A DNA stretch of 64,000 nt from Candidatus Omnitrophota bacterium (lineage in GTDB: Bacteria > Omnitrophota > Gorgyraeia > Gygaellales > Profunditerraquicolaceae). The notes beneath the pieces are model-generated. The model had not been told where the DNA came from and searched no databases. It saw only the letters and a list, made by a program, of their open reading frames with translations. The position numbers and the translations under genes were made by a program. The stretch's first letter is position 1. Every line of letters begins with the position of its first letter. The stretch spans positions 9,540 through 73,539 of the forward strand of contig JBFZAT010000011.1 of the NCBI GenBank assembly GCA_041308845.1, given 5' to 3'. Of this stretch, positions 15,064 to 58,888 are shown piece by piece.

Positions 15064-16512
15064 GTGGAAGATATGGGTTTTCGGAAGTATAAAACCTGTT
15101 TTATCAATTTCTTTTTTGTCCCGCTGGTTATTTTTATCATTACCTATTTTGCTTTTCCTAAATTTACCAAGCTCGGCTTTATAATTGATGATATAGATTA
15201 TTTAATGCATCTGGTAATTAGTAGAAGTGATTCTTTAAGCTTTATACATTCATATGCTTTGCGGGGTTTAAGTTTTAAGCCCATGTCTTTAGGGTTGAAC
15301 TGGGTAATTAATTTTTATTTATTTGGGACAAACCCGCACAACTACTATTTATTTAATATAGCAGTACATGCAATTAATTCCTTCCTGGTTTACCTCTTAC
15401 TTAATCTAATATTTAAATTCAGAATGTTAAGTTTTATGGTTAGTCTGTATTATTTAATGCATCCTTTTAATCTAGAAGGCTTAAGCTGGATTAGCGCAGG
15501 TTTTACTTCTCAAAACGTGGTCTTTTTTTCATGCCTTACGCTTATTACCTATTATTTATACATTAAGGGAGCTAAGAAGATTTTTATAGTTTTGTCGTAT
15601 TTATTATACTTCTGTGCTTTCCTATCGAGAGAAGATGTAATTTTATTGCCAGTTTTAATTATTATTCTTTTAATTTTTATTAGGAGGTTGGCTAGAACTA
15701 GAATTCTAGAAGTTTCGGTTTATGCGGGCATAGCTTTGCTTGTATTACTAGGCAGATTTTTATTCCTGTACCCGAATCCCTTTCAACTCTACCGATGGGA
15801 TTTCTTAAATATACAAAATGCACTCTTGAGAAATGAATATTATTTGAATTTGGCCTTCGGTCCATTTATCAAACTTTTCAGTGGGCCAGCGTTTTTAGAG
15901 AACAATATAATCTTGTCAATTATATTGAAACTATCCTTATTTCTATTCCTAGCTGTTTTTGTCGGCCGTAAAATTTATACACATTGGAATTCTGATGAGT
16001 TTGATGAGGCAAAATTACTAGTTTTCGGACTCATTTGGTATCTGGTGCTCGCTGTTCCTTTCAATTTTATGATCGGAGCAGAGTTCTGGCAGAAGCGGTA
16101 TCTATCTTTGTCGATTGTCGGGATACTGATAGCTCAGATCGCGGCAATCGCCATCGTCTGTAAGCCAATCCTAAAATCAATGTTCTACGCCAGTAAATTT
16201 TTATTTCTGTGTTTTTCTTCTAGCCTAATATTAATTTCTCATTATATGATTATTGCGGGGTTCAGTGAGAGCATAATTTCTAAGCATGTTTTGAATTACC
16301 AATATTATGCTGAAAAAATACATTTAGCTTTAAAAAGAAACCCCGGGATTCAAAATATTCAACTAGTCGGATTCCCGGGAGAAGAAAGAGCCTCACAATT
16401 TTTTAAGTTTTTTCCGGAATTTAAGAATATAGAATTTACGGTTATTGAAAATCTGGAAGATGATTCTGATGATAGAGAGGCAGATTTAACCATTGAGCAT
16501 CGAGAGATATAA
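15064..16512 (+). CDS. GT-C-fold integral membrane glycosyltransferase (PMT/ArnT-like), paralog A1
   Basis: Polytopic; first-loop acidic motif (IIDDIDYLMHLV), FG.NP..Y....N...H motif, HPFNLE. Paralog of 21973..23553. Confidence 0.55.
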   Translation: MEDMGFRKYKTCFINFFFVPLVIFIITYFAFPKFTKLGFIIDDIDYLMHLVISRSDSLSFIHSYALRGLSFKPMSLGLNWVINFYLFGTNPHNYYLFNIAVHAINSFLVYLLLNLIFKFRMLSFMVSLYYLMHPFNLEGLSWISAGFTSQNVVFFSCLTLITYYLYIKGAKKIFIVLSYLLYFCAFLSREDVILLPVLIIILLIFIRRLARTRILEVSVYAGIALLVLLGRFLFLYPNPFQLYRWDFLNIQNALLRNEYYLNLAFGPFIKLFSGPAFLENNIILSIILKLSLFLFLAVFVGRKIYTHWNSDEFDEAKLLVFGLIWYLVLAVPFNFMIGAEFWQKRYLSLSIVGILIAQIAAIAIVCKPILKSMFYASKFLFLCFSSSLILISHYMIIAGFSESIISKHVLNYQYYAEKIHLALKRNPGIQNIQLVGFPGEERASQFFKFFPEFKNIEFTVIENLEDDSDDREADLTIEHREI

Positions 16513-29091: not shown

Positions 29092-30555
29092 TTGATGGCA
29101 GAGTTAAAGAATAAAAAAATCCTTCTCATTTTTCCTGACAACAGCCCATTTCCTTACCATATCGCCACGCCGCTAAATATTTTCTGCTTGGGAACGTATT
29201 TAAACAACCAAGGTTATCAAGTGTTTTACTATGATGAACGGGTGGAATCCTTAAAGCAGCTTTATGCCAGGCTGGAGGAGAAGCCGTTTCTGGTGGGCTT
29301 AACTACGATGACCTCGCATCAAATCAAGCGTGCTATTGCTATCGCTGCCAGGATTAAAAAAGTTTTTCCCCGTATACCGCTGGTTTGGGGAGGTGTTCAT
29401 CCTAGCATGTGTCCGGAACAGACCTTGAAATCAGATTGGGTGGATTTTGTAATTATCGGCGAAGGGGAAGAAACTCTGCTAGCTTTAGCCGATAAGCTTC
29501 AAGAAGGAATTCAAGATTTTAGCCAAATAGCAGGTTTAGCTTGGAAAAAAGGCAGTGCAATCCATATAAATCAGCAGAGAGAATTTATGGATATAGAGAC
29601 ATTGCCGTTTCCCTATCCAGACCAGGCAGCCAGTAGGCTTGCTTTATATCTTAAACATGAGACTACTCTACCGGTAGTCGGTTATCAGCTTTCCCGGGGG
29701 TGCCGTTTCCGGTGCCGTTTTTGTTACAGCACTTTTTTCCATAAGGGGATCTGCAGGACAAAAAGCAAAGAAAAGATTAAAGATGAGCTGACAAAAATTC
29801 AAGGTTTGGGCGTAAAGAAAATAATTTTTTATGATGATAGCCTGGGGCCGGACAGGCAGATGTTATACGCATTAACCGAAATTATGGGCGGGCTTAAAAT
29901 GCGTTGGACTGCTTCCCCGCGCCTAGAATTTTTCGATCAAGATTTGTTGGAAAGATTTCAAGAGAGCGGTTGTGAACATTTATGTTTTGGCATTGAATCG
30001 TTTTCAGATGAGAGGCTGGGTTATCTGGGTAAAGGGCTTACTCGGAAGCAGATTTTAGCCGGGGTTAAAGTTATGGCCCAGGCTCAAAACCGAGTTACTT
30101 ATCTATTGATGTTTGGCTTTCCCGATGAATCCGTCGAGGATTTAAAAGAAATGTTGGATTTCGTTGATGAACTAAGACGGTTGCATAAAAATGCCGAGGT
30201 CGCCTTGCAGCCATATGCTCCGTTTCCGGGTACGCCGCTTTATGAGCAGGCGGTAAAAAATGGATTTCAGCCTCCCCTTCAACTAGCAGGCTGGAGCAGA
30301 TTTACCATGGATGACGTGCACACCCCTTGGGTTAAGAATAAGGCCCAGTTAAGAAACTTATATTTAATTTCATTTATGGCTTTTAGGTATGATTGGTTGC
30401 TTAGTGGGTTTAAGTTAAAATATTTTTATTATTTACTGCACAAAATAGCGCTTTGGAGATGGAAAAAAAGATTTTTTGGCTTTTGTGTTGAGTCTTGGTT
30501 ATATCGGCAGTATAAAAGAGCCTGGATTATTTATCAAAAAATAACCAAAGGTTAA
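29092..30555 (+). CDS. B12-binding-domain radical SAM enzyme (class B), third paralog
   Basis: N-terminal B12-like Rossmann domain (KKILLIFPDN...VGLTTMTSH...LVWGGVHPS) and LSRGCRFRCRFCYS. Confidence 0.75.
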   Translation: MMAELKNKKILLIFPDNSPFPYHIATPLNIFCLGTYLNNQGYQVFYYDERVESLKQLYARLEEKPFLVGLTTMTSHQIKRAIAIAARIKKVFPRIPLVWGGVHPSMCPEQTLKSDWVDFVIIGEGEETLLALADKLQEGIQDFSQIAGLAWKKGSAIHINQQREFMDIETLPFPYPDQAASRLALYLKHETTLPVVGYQLSRGCRFRCRFCYSTFFHKGICRTKSKEKIKDELTKIQGLGVKKIIFYDDSLGPDRQMLYALTEIMGGLKMRWTASPRLEFFDQDLLERFQESGCEHLCFGIESFSDERLGYLGKGLTRKQILAGVKVMAQAQNRVTYLLMFGFPDESVEDLKEMLDFVDELRRLHKNAEVALQPYAPFPGTPLYEQAVKNGFQPPLQLAGWSRFTMDDVHTPWVKNKAQLRNLYLISFMAFRYDWLLSGFKLKYFYYLLHKIALWRWKKRFFGFCVESWLYRQYKRAWIIYQKITKG

Positions 30556-31562
30556 TTAAGTGGCTTTTTAGTGCTATCCGGTAAGAGCATTCTTAAAACC
30601 CCGCAAATAAAGCCTATACCGATAGTCAGATGCATGAGGTGTACAGCAAGGTAAACTCTTCCTGTAAAAAACAGGCCTTCCTTTAAATAAACATAGCGCA
30701 GGAATTTTATTTCTAATAAAAATTGGGAAAAAAGCATTACCAGGGAAATAATCAAAAGATTATAATGCAGGAAAGAGCATAAAAAGCAACTTATGCCCCA
30801 GAAAGAAAAAACAGCAGATAAGCTCTCTTGGGCAGTGGCCAAGGCGCCCGGGGATTCGAATTTTATTCTTTTTATAAATACGGGGGCCCAGGTGGCGCTT
30901 CTGGTTAATAGTGTTTTTAGACGTTGTGGGAAATTTTTACACCGGCGTTCAAATTGGATGTTTTGCAGGATAACGTTCCGGTAAACATTAGATAGCCGAT
31001 GGCCGAATTCATATTCTTCAATGCCGGCCCCTTTAAAACTTGGATTAAATCCTCCTAACTGTTTAAAAGCCTTTGTTCTAATTGCTCCGCATTGGGATTG
31101 GAAAATCGTATAATTTCTATAAACTTCGTTTTTTATCCACCGGTAATAGTAATATGTTCTTAAGGAGATAAACTTTGCGCCAAAGGTTTCAGAACAGTAC
31201 TTAGGCGACATCGTACAAGCAATAGCGGTAATTTCCTGTTTTTGGTTAAAAAATTCCCAGATCTGATCCAAGGTATCCTTTTTAATGAATACGTCAGCAT
31301 CAATAAATAACAGAATGTCTCCTTGGGCTTTTTCTGCGCCATCATTGCGAGAAGCTGCAGCGCCTCGGTTTAGCGCATGTTTTATAATTTTTACCGGGAA
31401 GTTATGAGCGATTTCAGCAGTCGCATCTTGGCTGCAGTCTTCCACTACGATCACTTCAAAATCTTTAAAATCCGAGGCAAAAACTGCTTTAAGGCAGTCT
31501 TTCAGGGTATCTGCAGCATTAAAGGCCGGGACGATTATAGAAATTTTAAAGTTATCAGGCAT
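30552..31562 (-). CDS. GT2 glycosyltransferase with C-terminal membrane anchor
   Basis: ISIIVPAFNAADTL...FEVIVVEDCSQDAT...LFIDADV (DxD), C-terminal hydrophobic helices. It is the only minus-strand gene in the island. Confidence 0.7.
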   Translation of the reverse strand: MPDNFKISIIVPAFNAADTLKDCLKAVFASDFKDFEVIVVEDCSQDATAEIAHNFPVKIIKHALNRGAAASRNDGAEKAQGDILLFIDADVFIKKDTLDQIWEFFNQKQEITAIACTMSPKYCSETFGAKFISLRTYYYYRWIKNEVYRNYTIFQSQCGAIRTKAFKQLGGFNPSFKGAGIEEYEFGHRLSNVYRNVILQNIQFERRCKNFPQRLKTLLTRSATWAPVFIKRIKFESPGALATAQESLSAVFSFWGISCFLCSFLHYNLLIISLVMLFSQFLLEIKFLRYVYLKEGLFFTGRVYLAVHLMHLTIGIGFICGVLRMLLPDSTKKPLN

Positions 31563-37561: not shown

Positions 37562-39076
37562 ATGCCTAAAAAGAGCTGTATTTTGTTAATTTTGGCCCTA
37601 AGTTTTACCTCTTTGGCACAGAGTTATGAGTTGGTCAACACTGACCAACTAACAGTACAGCTGGATACCTATCTGCGCACAGATTTAGTTACTTTTAAAA
37701 ATGTTGTGGATCTAGATCGGCGTAATCATGATGATCAGGTAACTTATTACGGGCTGGATTATAGTTTTGCTTTCAGCGCCGATTTTAAAAATTCAGGAAA
37801 TAAGATTTACCTTAAAGTTGAACGCAATGGCCCTTATGATTATAGCGCTCCGCTTTTCGTCCATAATACATTGGTTACTTCCGGTGGAAGCATTGAGGGT
37901 TACCGTAACCAAGAATTGCTGCCGCAAGTGGAAGAATTTTGGCTGGATAATAAGTTCTGGGGTGATTTTGGGCTTAAGACCGGTTTGTATATTTATGCAG
38001 TAGGCAATGGTTTCAGTTTAAACGGCGGATATGAGAATTACGGAGTGACTTTATACCGGCAAGCGGAAAACAGCTTTGGGCGTTTGTATTATTGCCGGCC
38101 GGATTTAGTGTATAAAAATCGTTTAGGCCCGCATGTGCAGCAGGAAGAAGATCAGGGGGAAGAGTACGAAACGAATGCGGCTAATTTTTTTGCCGCAGAT
38201 ATTAAAATTTCCGCGGGTCCGCAAACCTTTTGGCCTTATGTCGGAGTATTAGCTGATTATACTTCTGCCGGCAAAAGGGATAATTTTTATGCTGCTTTGG
38301 TAAAAAGGGATTTATTGGGTACATTTGGCGTTGCCTGGGAATATGCAGCAGAAAGTTTTACCTTTAAATTAGAAGCGGCGCGTAATTTTGGGTATGCGCA
38401 AAGCCAAAATAGTGATTATAAGGATATTCAACACACCGGCTATCTGGTTTACTCCGGGATTAACTATGTTTTAGGTAAATTTATCCCGGAATTACATTTT
38501 TTATTCTGTTCGGGGAATAATGCTACTTTGGATCTGGCCGGCAAATCCGATGAGCCGTATGTTTCGGGGAAGAACCGGGCTTTTAGTTATTCTTCAGTGA
38601 CCAACCGGAATTTAAGCGATACGGTCAGCAGCAGCAATGTTGATATGTTGCCAATTGTGGCGATGGGCGGCGGGTATGGTTTAAATTACGGCGTACCCCG
38701 GCCGGGGACATTTTCATCAGCCGATTTCGATAATTTGATTTTACCGGTTATCGGTTTTACTTATAATTTTACAGATAAACTTTGCCTAAGCTTATACGGA
38801 TATTATCTAAGGGCGGCGAGCCGGCCGGTAGGGAGGTTAAACGGGCAAGGCAGGTATCTTGCCCGGGAATTAGGGACAGAGGCGGATTTGTTTATCGACT
38901 ACCAAATTACAAAAAATATTAACTTAGGTTTTTTAGGTGGATGTTTTTTCCCAGGAAAATATTATAAAGAAGAGCGCGATGATTATGACGGCAGCATATT
39001 TAGCCCCTATGTGCGAGGAGATGGCCGCGCGGACAATGCTTATCAGCTTGAATTCTATGTAGAGTTGAAGTTTTAA
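37562..39076 (+). CDS. Secreted outer-membrane beta-barrel candidate (porin-like)
   Basis: Signal peptide MPKKSCILLILALSFTSLAQS, many alternating aromatic/Gly strands, C-terminal ...YVELKF ending in Phe, which is typical of OM beta-barrels. Confidence 0.5.
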   Translation: MPKKSCILLILALSFTSLAQSYELVNTDQLTVQLDTYLRTDLVTFKNVVDLDRRNHDDQVTYYGLDYSFAFSADFKNSGNKIYLKVERNGPYDYSAPLFVHNTLVTSGGSIEGYRNQELLPQVEEFWLDNKFWGDFGLKTGLYIYAVGNGFSLNGGYENYGVTLYRQAENSFGRLYYCRPDLVYKNRLGPHVQQEEDQGEEYETNAANFFAADIKISAGPQTFWPYVGVLADYTSAGKRDNFYAALVKRDLLGTFGVAWEYAAESFTFKLEAARNFGYAQSQNSDYKDIQHTGYLVYSGINYVLGKFIPELHFLFCSGNNATLDLAGKSDEPYVSGKNRAFSYSSVTNRNLSDTVSSSNVDMLPIVAMGGGYGLNYGVPRPGTFSSADFDNLILPVIGFTYNFTDKLCLSLYGYYLRAASRPVGRLNGQGRYLARELGTEADLFIDYQITKNINLGFLGGCFFPGKYYKEERDDYDGSIFSPYVRGDGRADNAYQLEFYVELKF

Positions 39077-39498: not shown

Positions 39499-40004
39499 TA
39501 AAACAGTTTGTCCCGCAGGAGTTCTGTCTGAAATGCCGAGGATGCTGCCGGTTTAAAGAAGAAAATTCCGTTTGGAGCCCTTGTCTTTTAGATGAGGAGA
39601 TTCAAAAGTTACTTGAAAAAAAAGGAATTCCGGTTGCCTTGATTTCCATTGATCGCCGGATACAGCCGGTCGTAAACCCTCAAGGGGAAAATTTTATTTG
39701 CCCGTTTTTAAAAATACAAGATAATTACTGTCAGATTTATGATCTGCGGCCGTTTGAATGCCAACTGTACCCTTTCTTGATTAATTTGCGTAATGGCAAG
39801 GTTTTGTTAACGGTAGATTTAAATTGCCCTTATGTCTATGAGCAAATTAATAGCCAGTTGGCCAAAGATTATATTGCTTATTTGACAAGTTATCTTAATT
39901 CAGCACCGTTACGGCGGATGCTCAAAGATAATCCTCAGATTATTCAGGCTTATGAAGAAGTGAGAGAAGTCGCGGAGTTAGGCTTGCCTGATGAAACTAA
40001 ATAA
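39495..40004 (+). CDS. YkgJ-family CxxCxxCC (putative Fe-S/Zn) domain protein
   Basis: CLKCRGCCRF near the N-terminus plus additional Cys (CPF, CQ, CPY); 169 aa; overlaps both neighbours. Confidence 0.5.
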   Translation: MIKQFVPQEFCLKCRGCCRFKEENSVWSPCLLDEEIQKLLEKKGIPVALISIDRRIQPVVNPQGENFICPFLKIQDNYCQIYDLRPFECQLYPFLINLRNGKVLLTVDLNCPYVYEQINSQLAKDYIAYLTSYLNSAPLRRMLKDNPQIIQAYEEVREVAELGLPDETK

Positions 40005-40896
40005 ACTATCTTTAGACAATCAAGGGTTATTTAAGCGCTACTTGGGTCGCTTTCCTTGTGAATTAGCGGCATATTCTTTTGCCAATATCTATCTTTGGCA
40101 ACCGCTTTATAATGTTCATTGGGCAGTTAGCGAGGATAGTTTATGCGTATTTTTCCGCGATCGATTAGGTTGTTTTATGTATCTGCCCCCCTTAACGACA
40201 GCTCCGACTGCGCAGCTTATCCAACAAGTTTTTGCCGTGATGGACAAAGTTAATAAAAATCAGAATATTTCGCGCATCGAAAATATCCAAGCTCATCAAT
40301 TAGACTATTTTCGTTCTCTAGGGTATTTATGTTATGAGAAATATCCGGATTATTTGTGCCTGCGCAGCGATTTAGCGAATTTGAGGGGCAACCAATTTAA
40401 ATCTCAACGTGCCGCTTATAATTATTTTATCAAACACTACGACTATAAGCTCGCCCGTTTAGCATTGACCGATCAGCAGGAATGTTTAAGTTTGTTTGCT
40501 GCCTGGGCGCAAGAACGAAAAGCCAGACGTAATGATGATGTCTATTGTGGTATGCTTGAAGATAATCGTAGAATAATCCGGGAGGTTTTCGCTGATTACC
40601 AAAAATTGCGCTTGATAGGATTGGTGGTTAGATTGAACAATGAAATTAAGGCTTTTAGTTTCGGCTATCAACTTAATGCTGATACCTTTTGCATACTTTA
40701 TGAAATCACGGATTTATCGGCGAAAGGGTTAGCCCAGTTTATTTTCAGACGGTTTAGCCAGGAGTTAAAAAAATACAAATTTATCAATATAATGGATGAT
40801 TCTGGCCTGGAAAATTTACGCAGGAGTAAATTAGCTTATCACCCTCAGCGTTTAATTCCAGCTTATATCGCGATTAGGGATGAACGAAAATATTGA
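39991..40896 (+). CDS. DUF2156-family protein (homologous to the MprF/LysPGS C-terminal aminoacyl-tRNA transferase domain)
   Basis: AAYSFANIYLW, DYLCLRSDLANLRGNQFKSQRAAYNYF, AFSFGYQLNADTFCILYEITD..KGL fit the DUF2156 consensus; ~300 aa. Confidence 0.55.
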   Translation: MKLNKLSLDNQGLFKRYLGRFPCELAAYSFANIYLWQPLYNVHWAVSEDSLCVFFRDRLGCFMYLPPLTTAPTAQLIQQVFAVMDKVNKNQNISRIENIQAHQLDYFRSLGYLCYEKYPDYLCLRSDLANLRGNQFKSQRAAYNYFIKHYDYKLARLALTDQQECLSLFAAWAQERKARRNDDVYCGMLEDNRRIIREVFADYQKLRLIGLVVRLNNEIKAFSFGYQLNADTFCILYEITDLSAKGLAQFIFRRFSQELKKYKFINIMDDSGLENLRRSKLAYHPQRLIPAYIAIRDERKY

Positions 40897-41701
40897 AGAA
40901 TTAGAATTGACTATATTTGATACCGAGACCACTGGCCTTCATCCTTCTGCCGGAGACCGCATCGTAGAATTAGCCGGGCTTAGAGTGAAAGGCCGGGAAA
41001 GAATCGCTCAGTTTGATGTTTTAGTTAATCCGCAACGTTTAATCTCTCCCGGGGCTTTTGCGGTTAATAAAATTACTCCGGAAATGCTGGCTGATGCCCC
41101 GAGTATAGAAAAAATTATGCCTGCGTTTTTAGAATTTATCCAAGGCAGCTGCCTGTGTTCTTATAATGCAGAGTTTGATTTGGGTTTTTTAAACCAGGAG
41201 CTTAAGCTGCTCGGCCGGCCGCCGGTTACCGGAGTTTTGGTTTTAGATGTTTTAAAAATGGCCAAAAGACTACTGCCTGGCTTGGCGCGTTATGCGCTTT
41301 GGTTCGTCGCTGAAAAACTGGGAGTAGCATTGATTCAAACTCACCGGGCTTTTTCGGATGTGGAGATGACTTGGGAAGTTTTTATAAAATTAAAGGCGAT
41401 CTGTCAAAAGCAGGGGATTCAAGGCATAACTAATTTTTCCAACCTTTTTGCTTATAATGCGGAGCTGTTAGAAAGCTCGAATATGGAAAAAACTGTTTTA
41501 ATCCAGAAATATATTGAAACGCAAAGGATTCTACGGTTTCGTTATATTTCCAGTTATAATGCTGAAGTTTCTTTACGCGAGATTATTCCTCAACAGATCC
41601 GCCAGGATAAACAATACCGGTATTTAATCGGCTATTGTTGTGCGAAAAAGGAACAACGCATTTTCCGTCTGGATAATATTTTAAATTTAGAAACCGATTA
41701 A
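40880..41701 (+). CDS. DnaQ/DEDDh-family 3'-5' exonuclease with a C-terminal extension
   Basis: IFDTETTGL (Exo I), SYNAEFDLGFL (Exo II), HRAFSDVEMT (Exo III), plus ~100 extra C-terminal residues. Confidence 0.7.
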   Translation: MNENIEELELTIFDTETTGLHPSAGDRIVELAGLRVKGRERIAQFDVLVNPQRLISPGAFAVNKITPEMLADAPSIEKIMPAFLEFIQGSCLCSYNAEFDLGFLNQELKLLGRPPVTGVLVLDVLKMAKRLLPGLARYALWFVAEKLGVALIQTHRAFSDVEMTWEVFIKLKAICQKQGIQGITNFSNLFAYNAELLESSNMEKTVLIQKYIETQRILRFRYISSYNAEVSLREIIPQQIRQDKQYRYLIGYCCAKKEQRIFRLDNILNLETD

Positions 41702-41774
41702 TAATATTTAAGATTGCCTTAGTAAAGATTTAGTATAGAATAGATTCCCAGGCAGTTTTAATTAAGATAACCCG

Positions 41775-43712
41775 ATGAAAATCAAAGAACAAAAGATGGT
41801 TTCGGCAGAGCAAAGGAAATATTTACGTTTAGATACGGTTTTCCCAGTGCAATTCCGCTTGGAAGAACAGACGAAAGAAGTTTTGCTGAGTGGTTGGCTA
41901 CAGGGATTTACCAACAATATCAGCCGGGGTGGGATATGCCTGACGATTAATAACCTGGATCCGCAGTTGGGCAAGCTGCTCAGGCAGAAAGATGTGAAAT
42001 TATCATTAGAGATCGATATTCCGACCAGTCGGAAATCTATCCCTGCCCGAGGAGGGATAGTTTGGGTGAGGGATGTTCCGGGCGAGAAACCCCAGTATGT
42101 CGTGGGGGTTAACTATGACTATATTTTGGTTCAACACAATAATCAGCTCATGCGCTATGCTTGGTTTAGAAAACTATTTGCCCCGTTAATTTTAGCTGTA
42201 GTAATAGTGCTCGCCTCAGGGTTGAGCATCAATAGTTATCTGAATTTTAAATTGACCCAAGGTAATAAGCTATTAATTGAAAAACTAAGCGGGGTCTTGC
42301 AAGATTCAGAGTTGGCCAGACAAAGAATTGAAAAGGCAGTCGCCCAAGGGGAAAATTTTCAGTCTCAGCTCAACCAGCTGCAGGCGCGTATCAAATTCCT
42401 GGAAGCTGAGAAGCTAGAGATTCAGGCCGGAGATGCAATCCAGATTGGAGAACTCAATGATTTAATCGCTGGTTTGACCAAAGAAAAAAAGAATTTAGAA
42501 GAAACGCTGGCAGAGATTAAACGTGATGAAAGCCAGGCGGTTCAAGAATTAGTGCAGTTGGATGACCGGAAACTGGTTTTGGAAAAAGCTAATTTTGACA
42601 GGATGTACCAATGGTTAAAGCTTCATCAAAATCAGCGTTCCGGATTAGTGGCTAGTTTTGAAGGGGATAAGGAAATTACCAGCTGGTCTTTTACTTATGA
42701 CCTGGCTTTATTAGTGCAGGCTTATGCCAAATTTGGAGATTTTGACCGAGCTAAAAAAATTCTGGATTTTTTTAACCATGGAGCCAAAAGAGAAAACGGC
42801 TGGTTTTTGAATGCCTATTATGTAGATGATGGTGCTCCGGCAGAGTTTATTATGCATAGCGGGCCCAACCTGTGGGTGGGATTAGCAATTCTACAGTATA
42901 TGCAAGCTACGCAGGATAAAAGTTATTTAGAGTTAGCCGAAAGTATTGCCCAGACAATTATGGATTTACAGCGGCAAGATGCTTTTGGCGGTATCCGCGG
43001 CGGTCCCCACATGGAATGGTATGCTACCGAACATAATTTGGACGCCTACGCATTTTTTAATATGCTGGCTGAGGTGACCCAAAAACCGGTTTATGCCCAA
43101 GCCGCCCAGAAAACTATAGACTGGATGGTTAGTAATACCTATGCTCCTCCGGATTTACCAGTTAAACGCGGTAAGGGGGATGCTACAATTGCCACCGATA
43201 CTTATGCCTGGAGTATTGCGGCGGTGGGTCCGGAAAAATTGTTTGCTTTAGGCATGGATCCTGATCAGATCCTGGAATTCGTAGAAGAAAATTGCAGCGT
43301 GGAAGTTGTTTTTAAACGTTCCGATCAAGAGAGCGTAAGAATTAAAGGGTTTGATTTTGCCCCACAGCGACATACTGCCCGGGGCGGGGTAGTTTCTTCT
43401 GAATGGACAGCCCAGATGATTGTGGCTTATAAAATTATGGATGAGTTTTATACCGAAAGAGGAGATTTGACTAAAGCCGCCGGTTACGCTAAGAAAGCCC
43501 AGATCTATTTAAATGAATTAGGCAAGATGATTATTTCTAGCTCCTCGGCTTCCGGGCAAGGACAGGGCTGCCTGCCTTACGCTACTTTAGACCAAGTAGA
43601 TACCGGCCATGGCTGGATGACCCCTAAGGGCAGCCACACAGGTTCGGCCTCTGGTACCGCCTATGCCCTTTTTGCTTATTACGGTTTTAATCCTTTAAAG
43701 TTAAAAAAATGA
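41775..43712 (+). CDS. PilZ-domain protein with TM helix, coiled coil and a C-terminal alpha/alpha-toroid-like domain
   Basis: QRKYLRLD...NNISRGGICL (RxxxR...DxSxGG PilZ signature), one TM (LFAPLILAVVIVLASGL), ~100-aa heptad region, then repeated helical-hairpin blocks (YDLALLVQAY, NLWVGLAILQY, NLDAYAFFNML, DTYAWSIAAV). Confidence 0.6.
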   Translation: MKIKEQKMVSAEQRKYLRLDTVFPVQFRLEEQTKEVLLSGWLQGFTNNISRGGICLTINNLDPQLGKLLRQKDVKLSLEIDIPTSRKSIPARGGIVWVRDVPGEKPQYVVGVNYDYILVQHNNQLMRYAWFRKLFAPLILAVVIVLASGLSINSYLNFKLTQGNKLLIEKLSGVLQDSELARQRIEKAVAQGENFQSQLNQLQARIKFLEAEKLEIQAGDAIQIGELNDLIAGLTKEKKNLEETLAEIKRDESQAVQELVQLDDRKLVLEKANFDRMYQWLKLHQNQRSGLVASFEGDKEITSWSFTYDLALLVQAYAKFGDFDRAKKILDFFNHGAKRENGWFLNAYYVDDGAPAEFIMHSGPNLWVGLAILQYMQATQDKSYLELAESIAQTIMDLQRQDAFGGIRGGPHMEWYATEHNLDAYAFFNMLAEVTQKPVYAQAAQKTIDWMVSNTYAPPDLPVKRGKGDATIATDTYAWSIAAVGPEKLFALGMDPDQILEFVEENCSVEVVFKRSDQESVRIKGFDFAPQRHTARGGVVSSEWTAQMIVAYKIMDEFYTERGDLTKAAGYAKKAQIYLNELGKMIISSSSASGQGQGCLPYATLDQVDTGHGWMTPKGSHTGSASGTAYALFAYYGFNPLKLKK

Positions 43713-44356
43713 AACGTAAATTAAGCAGGATATTTAAACATCTCTACTCTGATTTAGGGCCGCAACACTGGTGGCCGGCAGATAGTGTTCTGGAAATTAT
43801 GGTCGGGGCGATTCTTGCACAAAATACCAGCTGGTCCAATGTGCAGAAAGCGATTTTGAATCTTAAGCAAAAAAAACTTCTAAATGTCCGCCGGTTATCC
43901 CGGGTAAAAACTGATAATTTGGCTGCTTTGATTAAAAGCGCAGGCTGTTATAATCTTAAGGCTGCTCGACTAAAAAACTTTCTTAAATTCTTTATCGATG
44001 GCTATCGCGGGCAAAGCAAGCTATTGGGTGCCCAAGATTGGAAAATTTTACGTAAACAATTGTTAGAAGTCAAAGGCATTGGGCCGGAAACCGCGGATTC
44101 TATTCTGCTCTATGCTTTAAATAAGCCAGTTTTTGTAGTGGATGCGTATACTCAGAGGATATTGCTGCGGCATGGATTAATTAATAAACCAATAGATTAT
44201 TATTCATTGCAGGATATTTTTATGCGCCACCTCAAGCCTGATGCGTGGATGTTTAACGAATATCATGCTTTATTGGTTAAAATAGGCAAGGATTACTGCC
44301 GCAAACAAAATCCTAAATGCGAGGTTTGCCCTTTATGGTCGATAAGAAACGCCTAA
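43709..44356 (+). CDS. HhH-GPD superfamily base-excision DNA glycosylase (EndoIII-related) with a C-terminal 4Fe-4S Cys cluster
   Basis: ILAQNTSW...VKGIGPETADSILLYAL...VVDAYTQRI, C-terminal CRKQNPKCEVCP. Confidence 0.65.
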   Translation: MKRKLSRIFKHLYSDLGPQHWWPADSVLEIMVGAILAQNTSWSNVQKAILNLKQKKLLNVRRLSRVKTDNLAALIKSAGCYNLKAARLKNFLKFFIDGYRGQSKLLGAQDWKILRKQLLEVKGIGPETADSILLYALNKPVFVVDAYTQRILLRHGLINKPIDYYSLQDIFMRHLKPDAWMFNEYHALLVKIGKDYCRKQNPKCEVCPLWSIRNA

Positions 44357-57367: not shown

Positions 57368-58888
57368 TTAACGGTCGAGGTTACGGTATTGAATTGCTTC
57401 TGAGAGATGTTCTGCCAGAATGTTTTCAGAGCCAGCCCAGTCTGCGATTGTCCGGGAGACTCTGAGAATCTTATCATAAGCCCGGGCAGAAAACCCTAAT
57501 TCTGTCATCGCCAACCTGAGTAATTCTTTGGCTTTTTCTTCAAGCTGACAATATTTTCTAATTAATTTTGGATTCATTTGGGCGTTGTAAAAGATATTTT
57601 CTGTTTTAAAGCGTTCTCTTTGCCTGTGCCGGGTTTTTTCTACTCGATTTTTAATCGTAGAGGAGGATTCAGCGTCTTGCCGGTCAGCCAGCTCCTGGTA
57701 TTTTATTGAAGGCAACTCAAGGTGTATATCAATCCTATCTAAAAGCGGCCCAGAAATTTTGCCCATATAACTGGCAATTTTATTTGGGTTACAACGGCAG
57801 GGTTTATGCGGATCTGTATAGTATCCACACGGGCAAGGATTCATTGCCCCGACTAGCATAAAAGCGGCAGGAAAAGCAAAAGATTTCATGATGCGGCAGA
57901 TGCGGATATGACCGTCTTCCAGGGGTTGCCGCAGTGCTTCCAGGCAATCTCGATGGAATTCCGGTAGTTCATCTAAAAAAATTACCCCCTGATGGCTTAA
58001 AGATATCTCTCCGGGGCGCGGGATAGAACCTCCGCCTACCATTGCCACGCTAGAAATAGTATGGTGTGGGCTACGAAACGGCCGGGTTGCCAGCAGTCCT
58101 TCTTTCATCAGCAGGGTGCCGGCAACAGAATGTATCCTGGTTATTTCTAGGGCTTCTTCTAGAATTAGATCTGGCATAATGGTGGGGATTCTTTTGGCGA
58201 GCATAGTCTTGCCGCTGCCTGGAGGGCCGATCATTAGGATGTTATGGCCTCCGGATACGGCCACTTCAATTGCTCTTTTAGCAAAAAATTGGCCTTTGAC
58301 TTCAGAAAAATCTAAGGAGTATGCGGAGTTATTCTGGAGTATTTGATTAGCTTCTAATCTAAAGGGTTGTTGTAAGCCAGGTTCAGCTAAAAATTGGACT
58401 ACTGCTTGTAGATTCTTAAGTGGCCAAACCGATATTTCTGGAATAATGCCTGCCTCCTGCGCATTTTCTCCGGGGAGAACAAGATTCTTGAGGCAAGATC
58501 CAGCTAAAGCTAGCCCTATCGCTAAAACTCCGCGTACCGGCCGCAGTCTTCCTTCAAGAGACAATTCTCCTAAGAAACAATAATCTTTCATTTGATTATT
58601 GGTTAGCTGTCCGCTGGCCGCCAAGATACCTAGGGCAATCGCTAAATCAAAGGCTGATCCCTCTTTTTTAATATTGGAGGGAGACAAGTTAACAGTTATC
58701 CTCTGGGCCGGCCAAGTCAACCCCGAATTTTTTATTGCCGAACGTACCCGCTCTTTGCTTTCTTTAACTGCAGTATCTGCTAAGCCGACTAGGTTTACCG
58801 CCGGTAGGCCGTTAGAGATGTCCACTTCGATTTCCACTGGATAAGCTTCTAGCCCCATCAGACCAAAACTGTAAGTTTTTGAGATCAT
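57368..58888 (-). CDS. comM: YifB/ComM-family Mg-chelatase-like AAA+ ATPase
   Basis: N-terminal Lon-protease-like domain (FGLMGLEAYPVEIEVDISNGLP), Walker A GPPGSGKT, 506 aa. Confidence 0.85.
   Translation of the reverse strand: MISKTYSFGLMGLEAYPVEIEVDISNGLPAVNLVGLADTAVKESKERVRSAIKNSGLTWPAQRITVNLSPSNIKKEGSAFDLAIALGILAASGQLTNNQMKDYCFLGELSLEGRLRPVRGVLAIGLALAGSCLKNLVLPGENAQEAGIIPEISVWPLKNLQAVVQFLAEPGLQQPFRLEANQILQNNSAYSLDFSEVKGQFFAKRAIEVAVSGGHNILMIGPPGSGKTMLAKRIPTIMPDLILEEALEITRIHSVAGTLLMKEGLLATRPFRSPHHTISSVAMVGGGSIPRPGEISLSHQGVIFLDELPEFHRDCLEALRQPLEDGHIRICRIMKSFAFPAAFMLVGAMNPCPCGYYTDPHKPCRCNPNKIASYMGKISGPLLDRIDIHLELPSIKYQELADRQDAESSSTIKNRVEKTRHRQRERFKTENIFYNAQMNPKLIRKYCQLEEKAKELLRLAMTELGFSARAYDKILRVSRTIADWAGSENILAEHLSEAIQYRNLDR

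Follow-up and report, generated by a model that had tools for sequence, protein, structure and literature searches.

We describe a gene from a Candidatus Omnitrophota bacterium, located in a 64,000-nucleotide stretch of contig JBFZAT010000011.1 (hereafter the window), whose 645-residue product joins a PilZ domain through one transmembrane helix and a long helical stalk to a domain with an (alpha/alpha)6-barrel fold. This four-part architecture is almost certain. It may well represent a bitopic inner-membrane receptor that works inside-out, with cyclic di-GMP (c-di-GMP) in the cytoplasm controlling or positioning a periplasmic glycan-processing enzyme. Known PilZ receptors of c-di-GMP, such as BcsA, YcgR and Alg44, gate cytoplasmic or membrane-embedded outputs. 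A PilZ domain wired by a single transmembrane helix to an extracytoplasmic enzyme-like barrel would, if true, amount to inside-out signaling by a second messenger in a new and very compact form.

The open reading frame (ORF) and its domains had been pointed out earlier from the letters of the window, and both were confirmed, the gene lying at exactly those coordinates on the + strand. The overall interpretation offered in that original prediction is also supported, in that the C-terminal domain is not predicted to fold as TPR or Sel1 repeats and the RxxxR motif of the PilZ domain has not been lost. One protein in the public collection (P0001) is 100% identical to the product of this ORF, and more than 120 clusters (90% identity) retain the whole architecture, at 55–75% identity and 100% length coverage. 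Public labels read 'PilZ domain-containing protein', 'hypothetical protein' and occasionally 'GH76 family protein', and a scan of the protein against NCBIfam matched no family. Coordinates of the features discussed below are collected in Table 1.

A PilZ domain with conserved c-di-GMP motifs

The N-terminal signature that had been read as PilZ (QRKYLRLD … NNISRGGICL) is upheld by Pfam, where PF07238 reaches 31.3 bits (gathering cut-off 22.5) and is matched over profile positions 1–99 of 102. We built a full-length AlphaFold2 (AF2) model on an alignment of 32 full-length orthologs that are 55–75% identical; its mean predicted local distance difference test score (pLDDT) is 81. The model has strands at residues 24–31, 42–49, 53–59, 74–80, 89–101 and 107–116 (pLDDT 80–90) and then a helix from residue 119, which corresponds to the six-stranded beta-barrel and C-terminal alpha-helix of the PilZ family. 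Both canonical c-di-GMP motifs, RxxxR (R14 to R18) and [D/N]xSxxG (N48 to G53), are present and align with RRQYVRTD and NISAGG of the ligand-bound Bacillus subtilis protein YpfA/MotI (PDB 5vx6).

Retention of RxxxR among orthologs had been proposed as a check on the PilZ assignment. R14, R18 and G53 are invariant across the 32 orthologs. They also make up three of only seven invariant columns, counted over the whole protein, in a more divergent alignment of 42 representatives of 50%-identity clusters (28–53% identical to the query). N48 is at least 90% conserved and is D or N among distant members, and 39 of the 42 distant representatives match Pfam PilZ independently. The N-terminal arm that holds RxxxR (residues 1–20) has a pLDDT below 50. 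In apo-PilZ domains the RxxxR arm is mobile, which the low value fits. Judging by these motifs and their conservation, the domain very probably binds c-di-GMP. Galperin and Chou found that PilZ domains in fusion proteins invariably retain such binding, and they describe the C-terminal helix of the domain as an interaction or output element (10.1101/814665).

The barrel could instead be a constitutive, membrane-anchored periplasmic enzyme outside c-di-GMP control, with PilZ serving for localization (for example to a partner at the pole or division site) or persisting as a relic. The frequent Gly or Ala in place of Ser50 would suit such a protein, some stand-alone PilZ proteins have indeed lost binding (10.1101/814665), and signaling through a single transmembrane helix with no HAMP-like converter is mechanically demanding. 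However, R14, R18 and G53 stay invariant while the rest of the PilZ domain drops below 30% identity, which argues for maintained ligand binding, and the retention reported for fusion proteins points the same way. The fusion also persists across about 55 clusters (50% identity) despite the presence of secreted barrels lacking PilZ in the same phylum. Because it is maintained alongside these PilZ-less proteins, the PilZ domain would appear to add a selected function. We regard the constitutive enzyme as a rather unlikely explanation.

A single transmembrane helix and a long stalk

Residues 134–152 (LFAPLILAVVIVLASGLSI) form the sole strongly hydrophobic segment, with a hydrophobicity unmatched elsewhere in the protein, in agreement with the single transmembrane helix predicted earlier. 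Among PilZ-type representatives the transmembrane segment lies at residue 122–151, mostly at about 125–140, with one exception (P0133). In the AF2 model it is part of one unbroken helix, residues 119–215, that comprises the C-terminal helix of the PilZ domain, the transmembrane segment and the start of the stalk.

The stalk helices reach about 130 residues past the membrane in the model and are separated by a five-residue break at 216–220. Residues 153–283 contain no proline. Hydrophobic occupancy of heptad a and d positions is 0.61–0.72, compared with 0.51–0.57 in shuffled sequences, and 36–86 of 2000 shuffles reach the observed value; the heptad pattern is real but modest. The segment had been described as a heptad repeat of about 100 residues, of which the repeat stands as a weak signal above shuffles while the length has to be revised to about 130. 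Length variation among the 32 orthologs is confined to the break at 216–220, and the steps are mostly of 7 or 14 residues.

The barrel very probably lies outside the membrane. An orientation with the N-terminus inside and the barrel outside is supported because PilZ needs cytoplasmic c-di-GMP, because there is one transmembrane helix, and because a signal-like N-terminus is found in 36 of 63 complete-looking relatives of the barrel that lack PilZ, stand-alone and multidomain proteins together. The original prediction had likewise placed the barrel in the periplasm on grounds of topology, and these three observations agree with it.

The barrel: fold class and relation to GH76

Modeled separately as residues 268–645, the barrel has a mean pLDDT of 83.8 and a predicted template modeling score (pTM) of 0.88; in the full-length model the helical domain spans residues 307–636. 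A domain of repeated hairpins, about 350 residues long, had been recognized here, and the four hairpin peptides that were singled out are the N-terminal ends of AF2 helices 307–319, 362–379, 418–435 and 471–483 (helices 1, 3, 5 and 7). AF2 assembles them into a twelve-helix (alpha/alpha)6 barrel whose fold matches include glycosidases and epimerases. When the PDB was searched with the barrel model, Foldseek listed 206 chains at E ≤ 1e-3; almost every one of the top 50 is a carbohydrate-active enzyme (CAZyme) with an (alpha/alpha)6 barrel. The best E-values belong to the GH76 alpha-1,6-mannanases BT2949 (3e-8), BT3792 (8e-7) and Aman6 (about 1e-5), whereas the best template modeling scores (TM-scores) belong to MmpH, a methylmannose-polysaccharide hydrolase (0.65/0.71, root-mean-square deviation 4.9 Å) and to a GH15 isomaltose glucohydrolase (0.66). 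Further matches include GH126 (GH8-like) and the cellobiose, glucose and GlcNAc 2-epimerases. TPR or Sel1 repeats, an outcome that would have spoken against the original prediction, were rejected, as their only hits have E > 0.5 over 20 residues and the fold search contradicts them. The fold class of the barrel is secure in the model, and a family assignment does not follow from it.

Sequence comparison gives a fainter picture. The Pfam match to GH76 covers residues 366–466 and scores 25.7 bits against a cut-off of 25.9, with only 113 of 366 profile positions aligned; a GH76 hit at E ≤ 0.01 is found in only 8 of the 42 divergent relatives. Sub-threshold Pfam hits from the query and the 42 relatives to GH76, GH88, Pectate_lyase_2 and GH127 all fall in the six-hairpin clan. 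PDB sequence searches with the single protein and with family profiles gave only insignificant matches to the barrel (E ≥ 0.1).

The catalytic nucleophile and acid/base of GH76 are an adjacent pair of aspartates, D124/D125 in Aman6 and D96/D97 in mycobacterial LamH (PMC11233589). LamH also demonstrates that a barrel of this kind is able to trim lipoglycan in the envelope of its own cell (PMC11233589). In HMMER alignments D118-D119-N-I-W of 4mu9_A falls on G363-P364-N-x-W of our protein, and D109-N-V-W of BT3792 (4c1s_A) aligns with the same G-P-N-x-W, the preceding Asp being outside the printed alignment. Every one of the 63 PilZ-less relatives has Gly at position 363, as do 35 of the 40 PilZ-type relatives, and Asp-Asp occurs in none. 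The GH76 enzymes Aman6, BT3792, BT2949 and LamH therefore resemble the barrel in giving the best profile link and the best Foldseek E-values and in sharing the (alpha/alpha)6 fold and the N-x-W motif of helix 3, but they differ in the dyad (Gly-Pro here), in the other carboxylates, and in overall similarity, with identities of 12–15% and TM-scores of 0.53–0.60. By its sequence the barrel belongs neither to GH76 nor to any other curated family. What had been called a glycosidase-like C-terminal domain thus keeps its fold class, while the term 'glycosidase' has no curated family behind it and stays putative.

Candidate active-site residues

A search for catalytic residues, suggested earlier as a check, gave a divided answer in that the GH76 dyad is absent and the barrel has near-universal carboxylates of its own. 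We counted conservation in the 63 PilZ-less and the 40 PilZ-type relatives. D309 follows Y308 in a pair that is near-universal in PilZ-less relatives; it is D in 60 of 63 PilZ-less and 36 of 40 PilZ-type proteins, the other four having E. E419 is found in 63/63 and 36/40, D423 in 52/63 and 34/40, and E543 in 62/63 and 38/40, respectively. In the loop before helix 7 and at the start of that helix, D475 (63/63), D469 (59/63) and R465 (44/63) are kept in PilZ-less relatives. Together the five carboxylates D309, E419, D469, D475 and E543 are 94–100% conserved in this group. Other near-universal residues there are W367 (55/63), D527 (54/63), Y602 (54/63) and W614 (49/63), and R536 is conserved among divergent barrel members alongside R465.

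Enzymes with the (alpha/alpha)6 fold form their pocket at the N-terminal ends of alternate helices. D309, E419, D475 and E543 sit at the N-terminal ends of odd-numbered helices, with D469 in the loop preceding helix 7, and N365/W367 and Y602 are likewise at helix starts, an arrangement that matches six-hairpin and AGE-epimerase proteins at the level of the fold. The loop 464–470 has a pLDDT below 50 despite its invariance, as expected of a mobile active-site loop. MmpH, an inverting glycosidase of clan GH-L (with GH15 and GH125), has its acid, Asp47, on the first hairpin and its base at Glu262 (PMC9883506). D309 and E543 occupy similar relative positions, a likeness of position only that may serve as a lead. 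Although MmpH gives the highest TM-scores, it has no detectable sequence similarity to the barrel, is cytoplasmic, and carries neither PilZ nor a transmembrane helix.

Some (alpha/alpha) toroids do not act on glycans, and a domain of the prenyltransferase or terpene-cyclase, LanC or thioester-domain kind would make the protein a c-di-GMP-controlled modifier of lipids or peptides. Three observations can be read in this sense, namely weak Pfam matches to Prenyltrans (in 2 of 42 relatives, E 4e-5 at best) and to TED_complement (in 1 of 42), weak sequence matches in the PDB to LanKC, a class III lanthionine synthetase (E about 0.5), and the conservation of C507, C599, H420 and H612 in the PilZ-type subfamily. 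However, its sequence hits fall far outside any significance threshold, and toroids of this kind are absent from the top 50 fold matches. C507 and C599 are kept in only 18 and 5 of the 63 PilZ-less relatives, whereas the carboxylates are kept, and the modules that co-occur with the barrel are carbohydrate-binding modules (CBMs) and GT2. A non-glycan toroid is very unlikely in our view, and on fold and residue pattern we consider it probable that the barrel is a carbohydrate-active enzyme.

A large barrel family and its partner modules

A profile of residues 270–645, searched against 1.84 billion representative proteins, matched 1320 proteins with E ≤ 1e-3, of which 625 reached E ≤ 1e-10. About 55 of these representatives (50%-identity clusters) have the PilZ motifs, a transmembrane segment near residue 130 and a barrel from about residue 270. 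Other members are stand-alone barrel proteins of 370–500 residues that have no Pfam match at all and whose homologs are all named 'hypothetical protein'. A third group consists of giant proteins of 1000–7886 residues; those with a named source are mostly from Candidatus Omnitrophota, with one from a Chloroflexi metagenome-assembled genome (MAG). One relative, P0259, exceeds the Pfam threshold for GH76.

Several of the giant proteins carry recognizable partners. P0196 (3011 residues) combines TPR, Glyco_trans_2_3, a B12-binding radical-SAM domain and the barrel; in P0203 the barrel is joined to B12-radical-SAM and to a glucan-synthase-like region; CBM30 and CBM11 modules are found in P0215; and P0262 carries fn3 and CarboxypepD_reg. 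By their annotation these partner modules point to carbohydrate chemistry. The barrel, as delineated by the profile, represents a large family that lacks a Pfam model and has expanded in Omnitrophota, and it is a candidate for a new CAZyme family.

West-Roberts et al. described a region of a giant Omnitrophota protein whose predicted structure is homologous to GH76 (4C1S), and small pilZ genes beside giant genes; the 645-residue PilZ-transmembrane-barrel protein is absent from their report (10.1101/2023.11.21.568195). Our barrel profile matches Omnitrophota proteins of 3011–7886 residues, whose barrel may be the same kind of domain as the GH76-like region in that preprint.

Proposed mechanism

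We judge the chances of the inside-out receptor to be about even. The cytoplasmic PilZ domain would bind c-di-GMP through R14xxxR18 and N48xSxxG53. From the C-terminal helix of PilZ the chain would run unbroken into the membrane, on through the transmembrane helix and then into the long periplasmic helices, of about 130 residues, which are probably either paired in an oligomer or bent back on each other as a hairpin. The stalk would carry the (alpha/alpha)6 barrel on the outward-facing side of the membrane, where the barrel may cleave or remodel an envelope or secreted glycan. Occupancy by c-di-GMP would alter helix packing or oligomerization, or would dock the protein to an inner-membrane synthase, and the resulting change would switch or position the periplasmic activity, exposure or partner contacts of the barrel. 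In effect, one polypeptide would combine an Alg44-type receptor with a periplasmic alpha/alpha-barrel enzyme of the BcsZ or AlgL type.

Mechanical passage of the signal outward is suggested because the helix is continuous, the ligand motifs are conserved and the fusion is kept beside secreted paralogs lacking PilZ. Control of barrel activity by c-di-GMP across the membrane is nevertheless a tentative proposal, to which we give slightly less than even confidence. A bolder version would see a phylum-wide switch in which c-di-GMP, by way of a PilZ domain rigidly coupled to the transmembrane helix and stalk, directly turns on a periplasmic or surface glycosidase of a new GH family (E419/E543 with D309/D475 instead of the GH76 dyad), with the same module at work in the giant 'predation' proteins, remodeling the cell's own or the prey's surface glycan in the attached, host-dependent lifestyle that has been proposed for these ultra-small bacteria. 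An extracytoplasmic enzyme would then, for the first time, be under inside-out control by a PilZ domain, and a new CAZy family would be founded. This version is improbable as a whole.

Several observations weigh against an inside-out receptor. Signaling through a single transmembrane helix is only a plausible proposal. S50 of the second PilZ motif varies between S, G and A, an appreciable minority of orthologs carrying Gly or Ala, and three of the 42 distant representatives have no Pfam PilZ match. The fold matches of the barrel share only 9–15% identity with it at TM-scores of 0.53–0.71, so that no known mechanism can be transferred, and its assignment as a GH76 enzyme was rejected because Gly-Pro replaces the Asp-Asp dyad and the Pfam score is below the cut-off. 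That the conserved residues come together in one pocket is inferred from where they fall in the secondary structure. In most of the giant relatives the partner domains could not be annotated in domain scans. Finally, the neighbors at 83 loci are housekeeping genes, and neither glycan genes nor a GT2 synthase/export operon is consistently adjacent.

If the receptor reading is true, the cell may control the processing of surface sugars from inside. A protein of 645 residues is a tractable entry to how uncultured, possibly predatory Omnitrophota build or attack envelopes, and to the role of the 'GH76-like' dark-matter domain in the giant proteins of this phylum. For a barrel family of 1320 representatives with neither a Pfam model nor the GH76 dyad, it also supplies defined residues to mutate. 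The interest is mostly for specialists in c-di-GMP and CAZymes and is limited by the absence of informative genomic context.

Comparison with known systems

The protein is similar to Alg44 of Pseudomonas aeruginosa in having an N-terminal cytoplasmic PilZ domain, one transmembrane helix and a helix-rich periplasmic part, and Alg44 acts on an extracytoplasmic polysaccharide. The PilZ domain of Alg44 is fused to a HlyD-type module, and its C-terminal helix is a coupling or dimerization element (10.1101/814665). However, the periplasmic output of Alg44 is a membrane fusion protein (MFP) beta-barrel/lipoyl module, whereas here it is an (alpha/alpha)6 barrel. Alg44 belongs to a GT2 synthase/export operon, while the gene described here comes from Omnitrophota and has only housekeeping neighbors.

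The likeness to Alg44 underlies the main alternative, to which the other two are lesser. In an Alg44-like co-polymerase or scaffold, a non-catalytic barrel that binds glycan or protein would act with the stalk as a bridge between a synthase of the inner membrane and export components in the periplasm or outer membrane, and c-di-GMP would activate the synthase. The order of PilZ, transmembrane helix and helical periplasmic part is the same as in Alg44 (10.1101/814665), and the two long helices with their indel-tolerant break at 216–220 could form an MFP-like hairpin, yet no HlyD or MFP match is found in Pfam or NCBIfam at E ≤ 1. The barrel does co-occur with GT2 synthase-like and TPR modules (P0196) and with a glucan-synthase-like module (P0203), but a synthase gene is not conserved beside the PilZ-barrel gene. 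Loss of the GH76 dyad would also suit a non-catalytic barrel. Against this, the five carboxylates are conserved as an active site would be, and they are conserved even in secreted stand-alone proteins that are unable to scaffold membranes. We consider a scaffold of this kind unlikely.

For the inside-out receptor, LapD of Pseudomonas fluorescens provides the closest logic. In the LapD/LapG system, cytoplasmic binding of c-di-GMP changes the action of a periplasmic domain across the inner membrane. LapD differs in using a degenerate EAL sensor with two transmembrane helices and a HAMP domain and in sequestering a protease, and it has no sequence or fold relationship to our protein. BcsZ (GH8) and AlgL (PL5) are periplasmic alpha/alpha-barrel enzymes that cleave glycan in c-di-GMP-dependent, synthase-dependent exopolysaccharide systems. 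They are functional analogs of the barrel, and the GH8-like GH126 is among its fold matches. In those systems, however, receptor (BcsA PilZ or Alg44) and enzyme are separate products of one operon, whereas here they are one polypeptide and an operon is not evident.

None of Alg44, LapD, BcsZ and AlgL joins PilZ to an extracytoplasmic enzyme-like barrel in one chain. Literature on PilZ with GH76 and on Omnitrophota with c-di-GMP yielded no description of this protein. The earlier statement that no characterized example was known holds to the extent that we found no described protein of this architecture, but it had overlooked Alg44 as a precedent for the topology and LapD as one for the logic. 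The protein is a PilZ fusion receptor with an output domain from an apparently new enzyme family.

Table 1. Features of the PilZ-barrel gene and of its immediate surroundings (positions in the window)
Feature	Position	Strand	Basis or remark
Whole gene: PilZ, transmembrane helix, long helices, (alpha/alpha)6 barrel	41775..43712	+	ORF list; 645 residues, ATG start
PilZ domain, residues 12–128	41808..42158	+	beta-barrel 24–116, C-terminal helix from 119
RxxxR c-di-GMP motif, R14-K-Y-L-R18	41814..41828	+	context E12-Q-R14-K-Y-L-R18-L-D
[D/N]xSxxG c-di-GMP motif, N48-I-S50-R-G-G53	41916..41933	+	second canonical PilZ motif
Single transmembrane helix, residues 134–152	42174..42230	+	19-residue Kyte-Doolittle mean 2.62
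Extracytoplasmic long helices, residues 153–215 and 221–283 (predicted)	42231..42623	+	AF2; break I216-QAGD220
(alpha/alpha)6-barrel domain, residues ~290–645	42642..43709	+	AF2, Foldseek; family with no Pfam model
D309 (Y-D motif), candidate carboxylate, start of barrel helix 1 (307–319)	42699..42701	+	conservation
G363-P-N-L-W367, at the place of the GH76 catalytic D-D-N-x-W	42861..42875	+	HMMER alignments
E419-H-N-L-D423, candidate active-site residues, start of helix 5 (418–435)	43029..43043	+	conservation
R465-G-K-G-D469-x5-D475, loop and start of helix 7	43167..43199	+	conservation, AF2
E543 (S-x-E-W-T motif), candidate general base, start of helix 9 (542–562)	43401..43403	+	conservation
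HhH-GPD gene (endonuclease III-like, C-terminal Cys cluster)	43709..44356	+	its ATG and the PilZ-barrel stop codon overlap (ATGA)
Promoter-like TTGCCT-16-TAGAAT in the 73-nucleotide gap upstream of the gene	41714..41741	+	consensus scan; weak, site count in the region not above shuffle expectation

Distribution and genomic neighborhood

Conserved barrel peptides were used to query one genome per species for 185,579 species. Of these species genomes, 275 encode a relative, and at the 80 best loci the match was confirmed to cover the full length. All of these 80 come from MAGs or single-amplified genomes (SAGs) of Omnitrophota, some of them named 'uncultured Planctomycetales', except for one titled 'bacterium'. 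As judged from these matches, the gene for the PilZ-transmembrane-barrel protein is a conserved, phylum-wide gene of Candidatus Omnitrophota.

The conserved gene order comprises a secreted protein of 504 residues, tRNA_bind, CxxCxxCC, LPG_synthase_C, RNase_T-WYL, the PilZ-barrel gene, HhH-GPD, M20, PAC2 and HAD. Among 80 orthologous loci, about 70 have the HhH-GPD gene next to the PilZ-barrel gene, including loci with different upstream neighbors, and the two are probably co-transcribed; a functional link is not evident. Genomic context was rejected as a guide to the substrate, as it amounts to a conserved housekeeping backbone. The genomes seem to cluster functions poorly, so that the context is neutral with respect to the glycan hypothesis. 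Neither paralogs of the gene nor GGDEF genes were found within the 64-kb window.

In distant loci HypF, HypD and a gene for a TPR-DUF3857-transglutaminase protein are inserted upstream of the PilZ-barrel gene. In two of these (L046, 5593–7974; L068, 5295–7967) the TPR-DUF3857-transglutaminase-core protein, of about 800–890 residues, is directly upstream and is preceded by HypF-like and HypD genes. Stand-alone paralogs are also found in housekeeping backbones; two of them are flanked by carA and carB, and a third has an AsmA-like gene and small PilZ genes as neighbors. In locus L086 (3558–8528) the secreted stand-alone protein P0286 is encoded two genes downstream of a PilZ protein of 123 residues. 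The stop codon of P0286 abuts the start of an AsmA/YhdP-like gene, and a further PilZ-containing gene follows about 3 kb on.

Three of the syntenic upstream genes have features of their own. The 504-residue protein (37562–39076) matches no Pfam family; it has a clear signal peptide (MPKKSCILLILALSFTSLAQS) and is syntenic upstream in many Omnitrophota genomes. The LPG_synthase_C gene (39991–40896), also syntenic, encodes a 301-residue protein that consists of the C-terminal domain of phosphatidylglycerol lysyltransferase alone, with no predicted transmembrane helix. Immediately upstream of the PilZ-barrel gene, positions 40880–41701 encode a 3'-5' exonuclease of the RNase_T/DnaQ type with a C-terminal WYL domain; its ortholog in locus L003 is shorter (195 residues), and no WYL domain is recorded there.

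A block of about 22 kb with low GC content (0.32–0.40, compared with about 0.42–0.45 in the flanks) lies at 15064–37438, between V-type ATPase genes and the gene for the 504-residue protein. It encodes two DUF2079 membrane proteins and two ORFs with multiple transmembrane segments and no Pfam hit, in addition to three B12-binding radical-SAM enzymes, two radical-SAM/SPASM enzymes, three GT2, two PMT_2 (GT-C) glycosyltransferases and an asparagine synthase. The block looks like a variable surface-glycan island. Its pairing of GT2 with B12-radical-SAM recurs fused to the barrel in P0196 and P0203. A functional link between this GT2/radical-SAM/PMT_2 island and the PilZ-barrel gene was rejected; the island is absent from orthologous loci, including L001 and L003, and its nearness to the gene is therefore probably coincidental.

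Over the whole window (1–64000) there are only two long non-overlapping ORFs on the - strand (30552–31562 and 57368–58888). GC skew is positive in every 2-kb bin, which places the window in one strongly strand-biased stretch.

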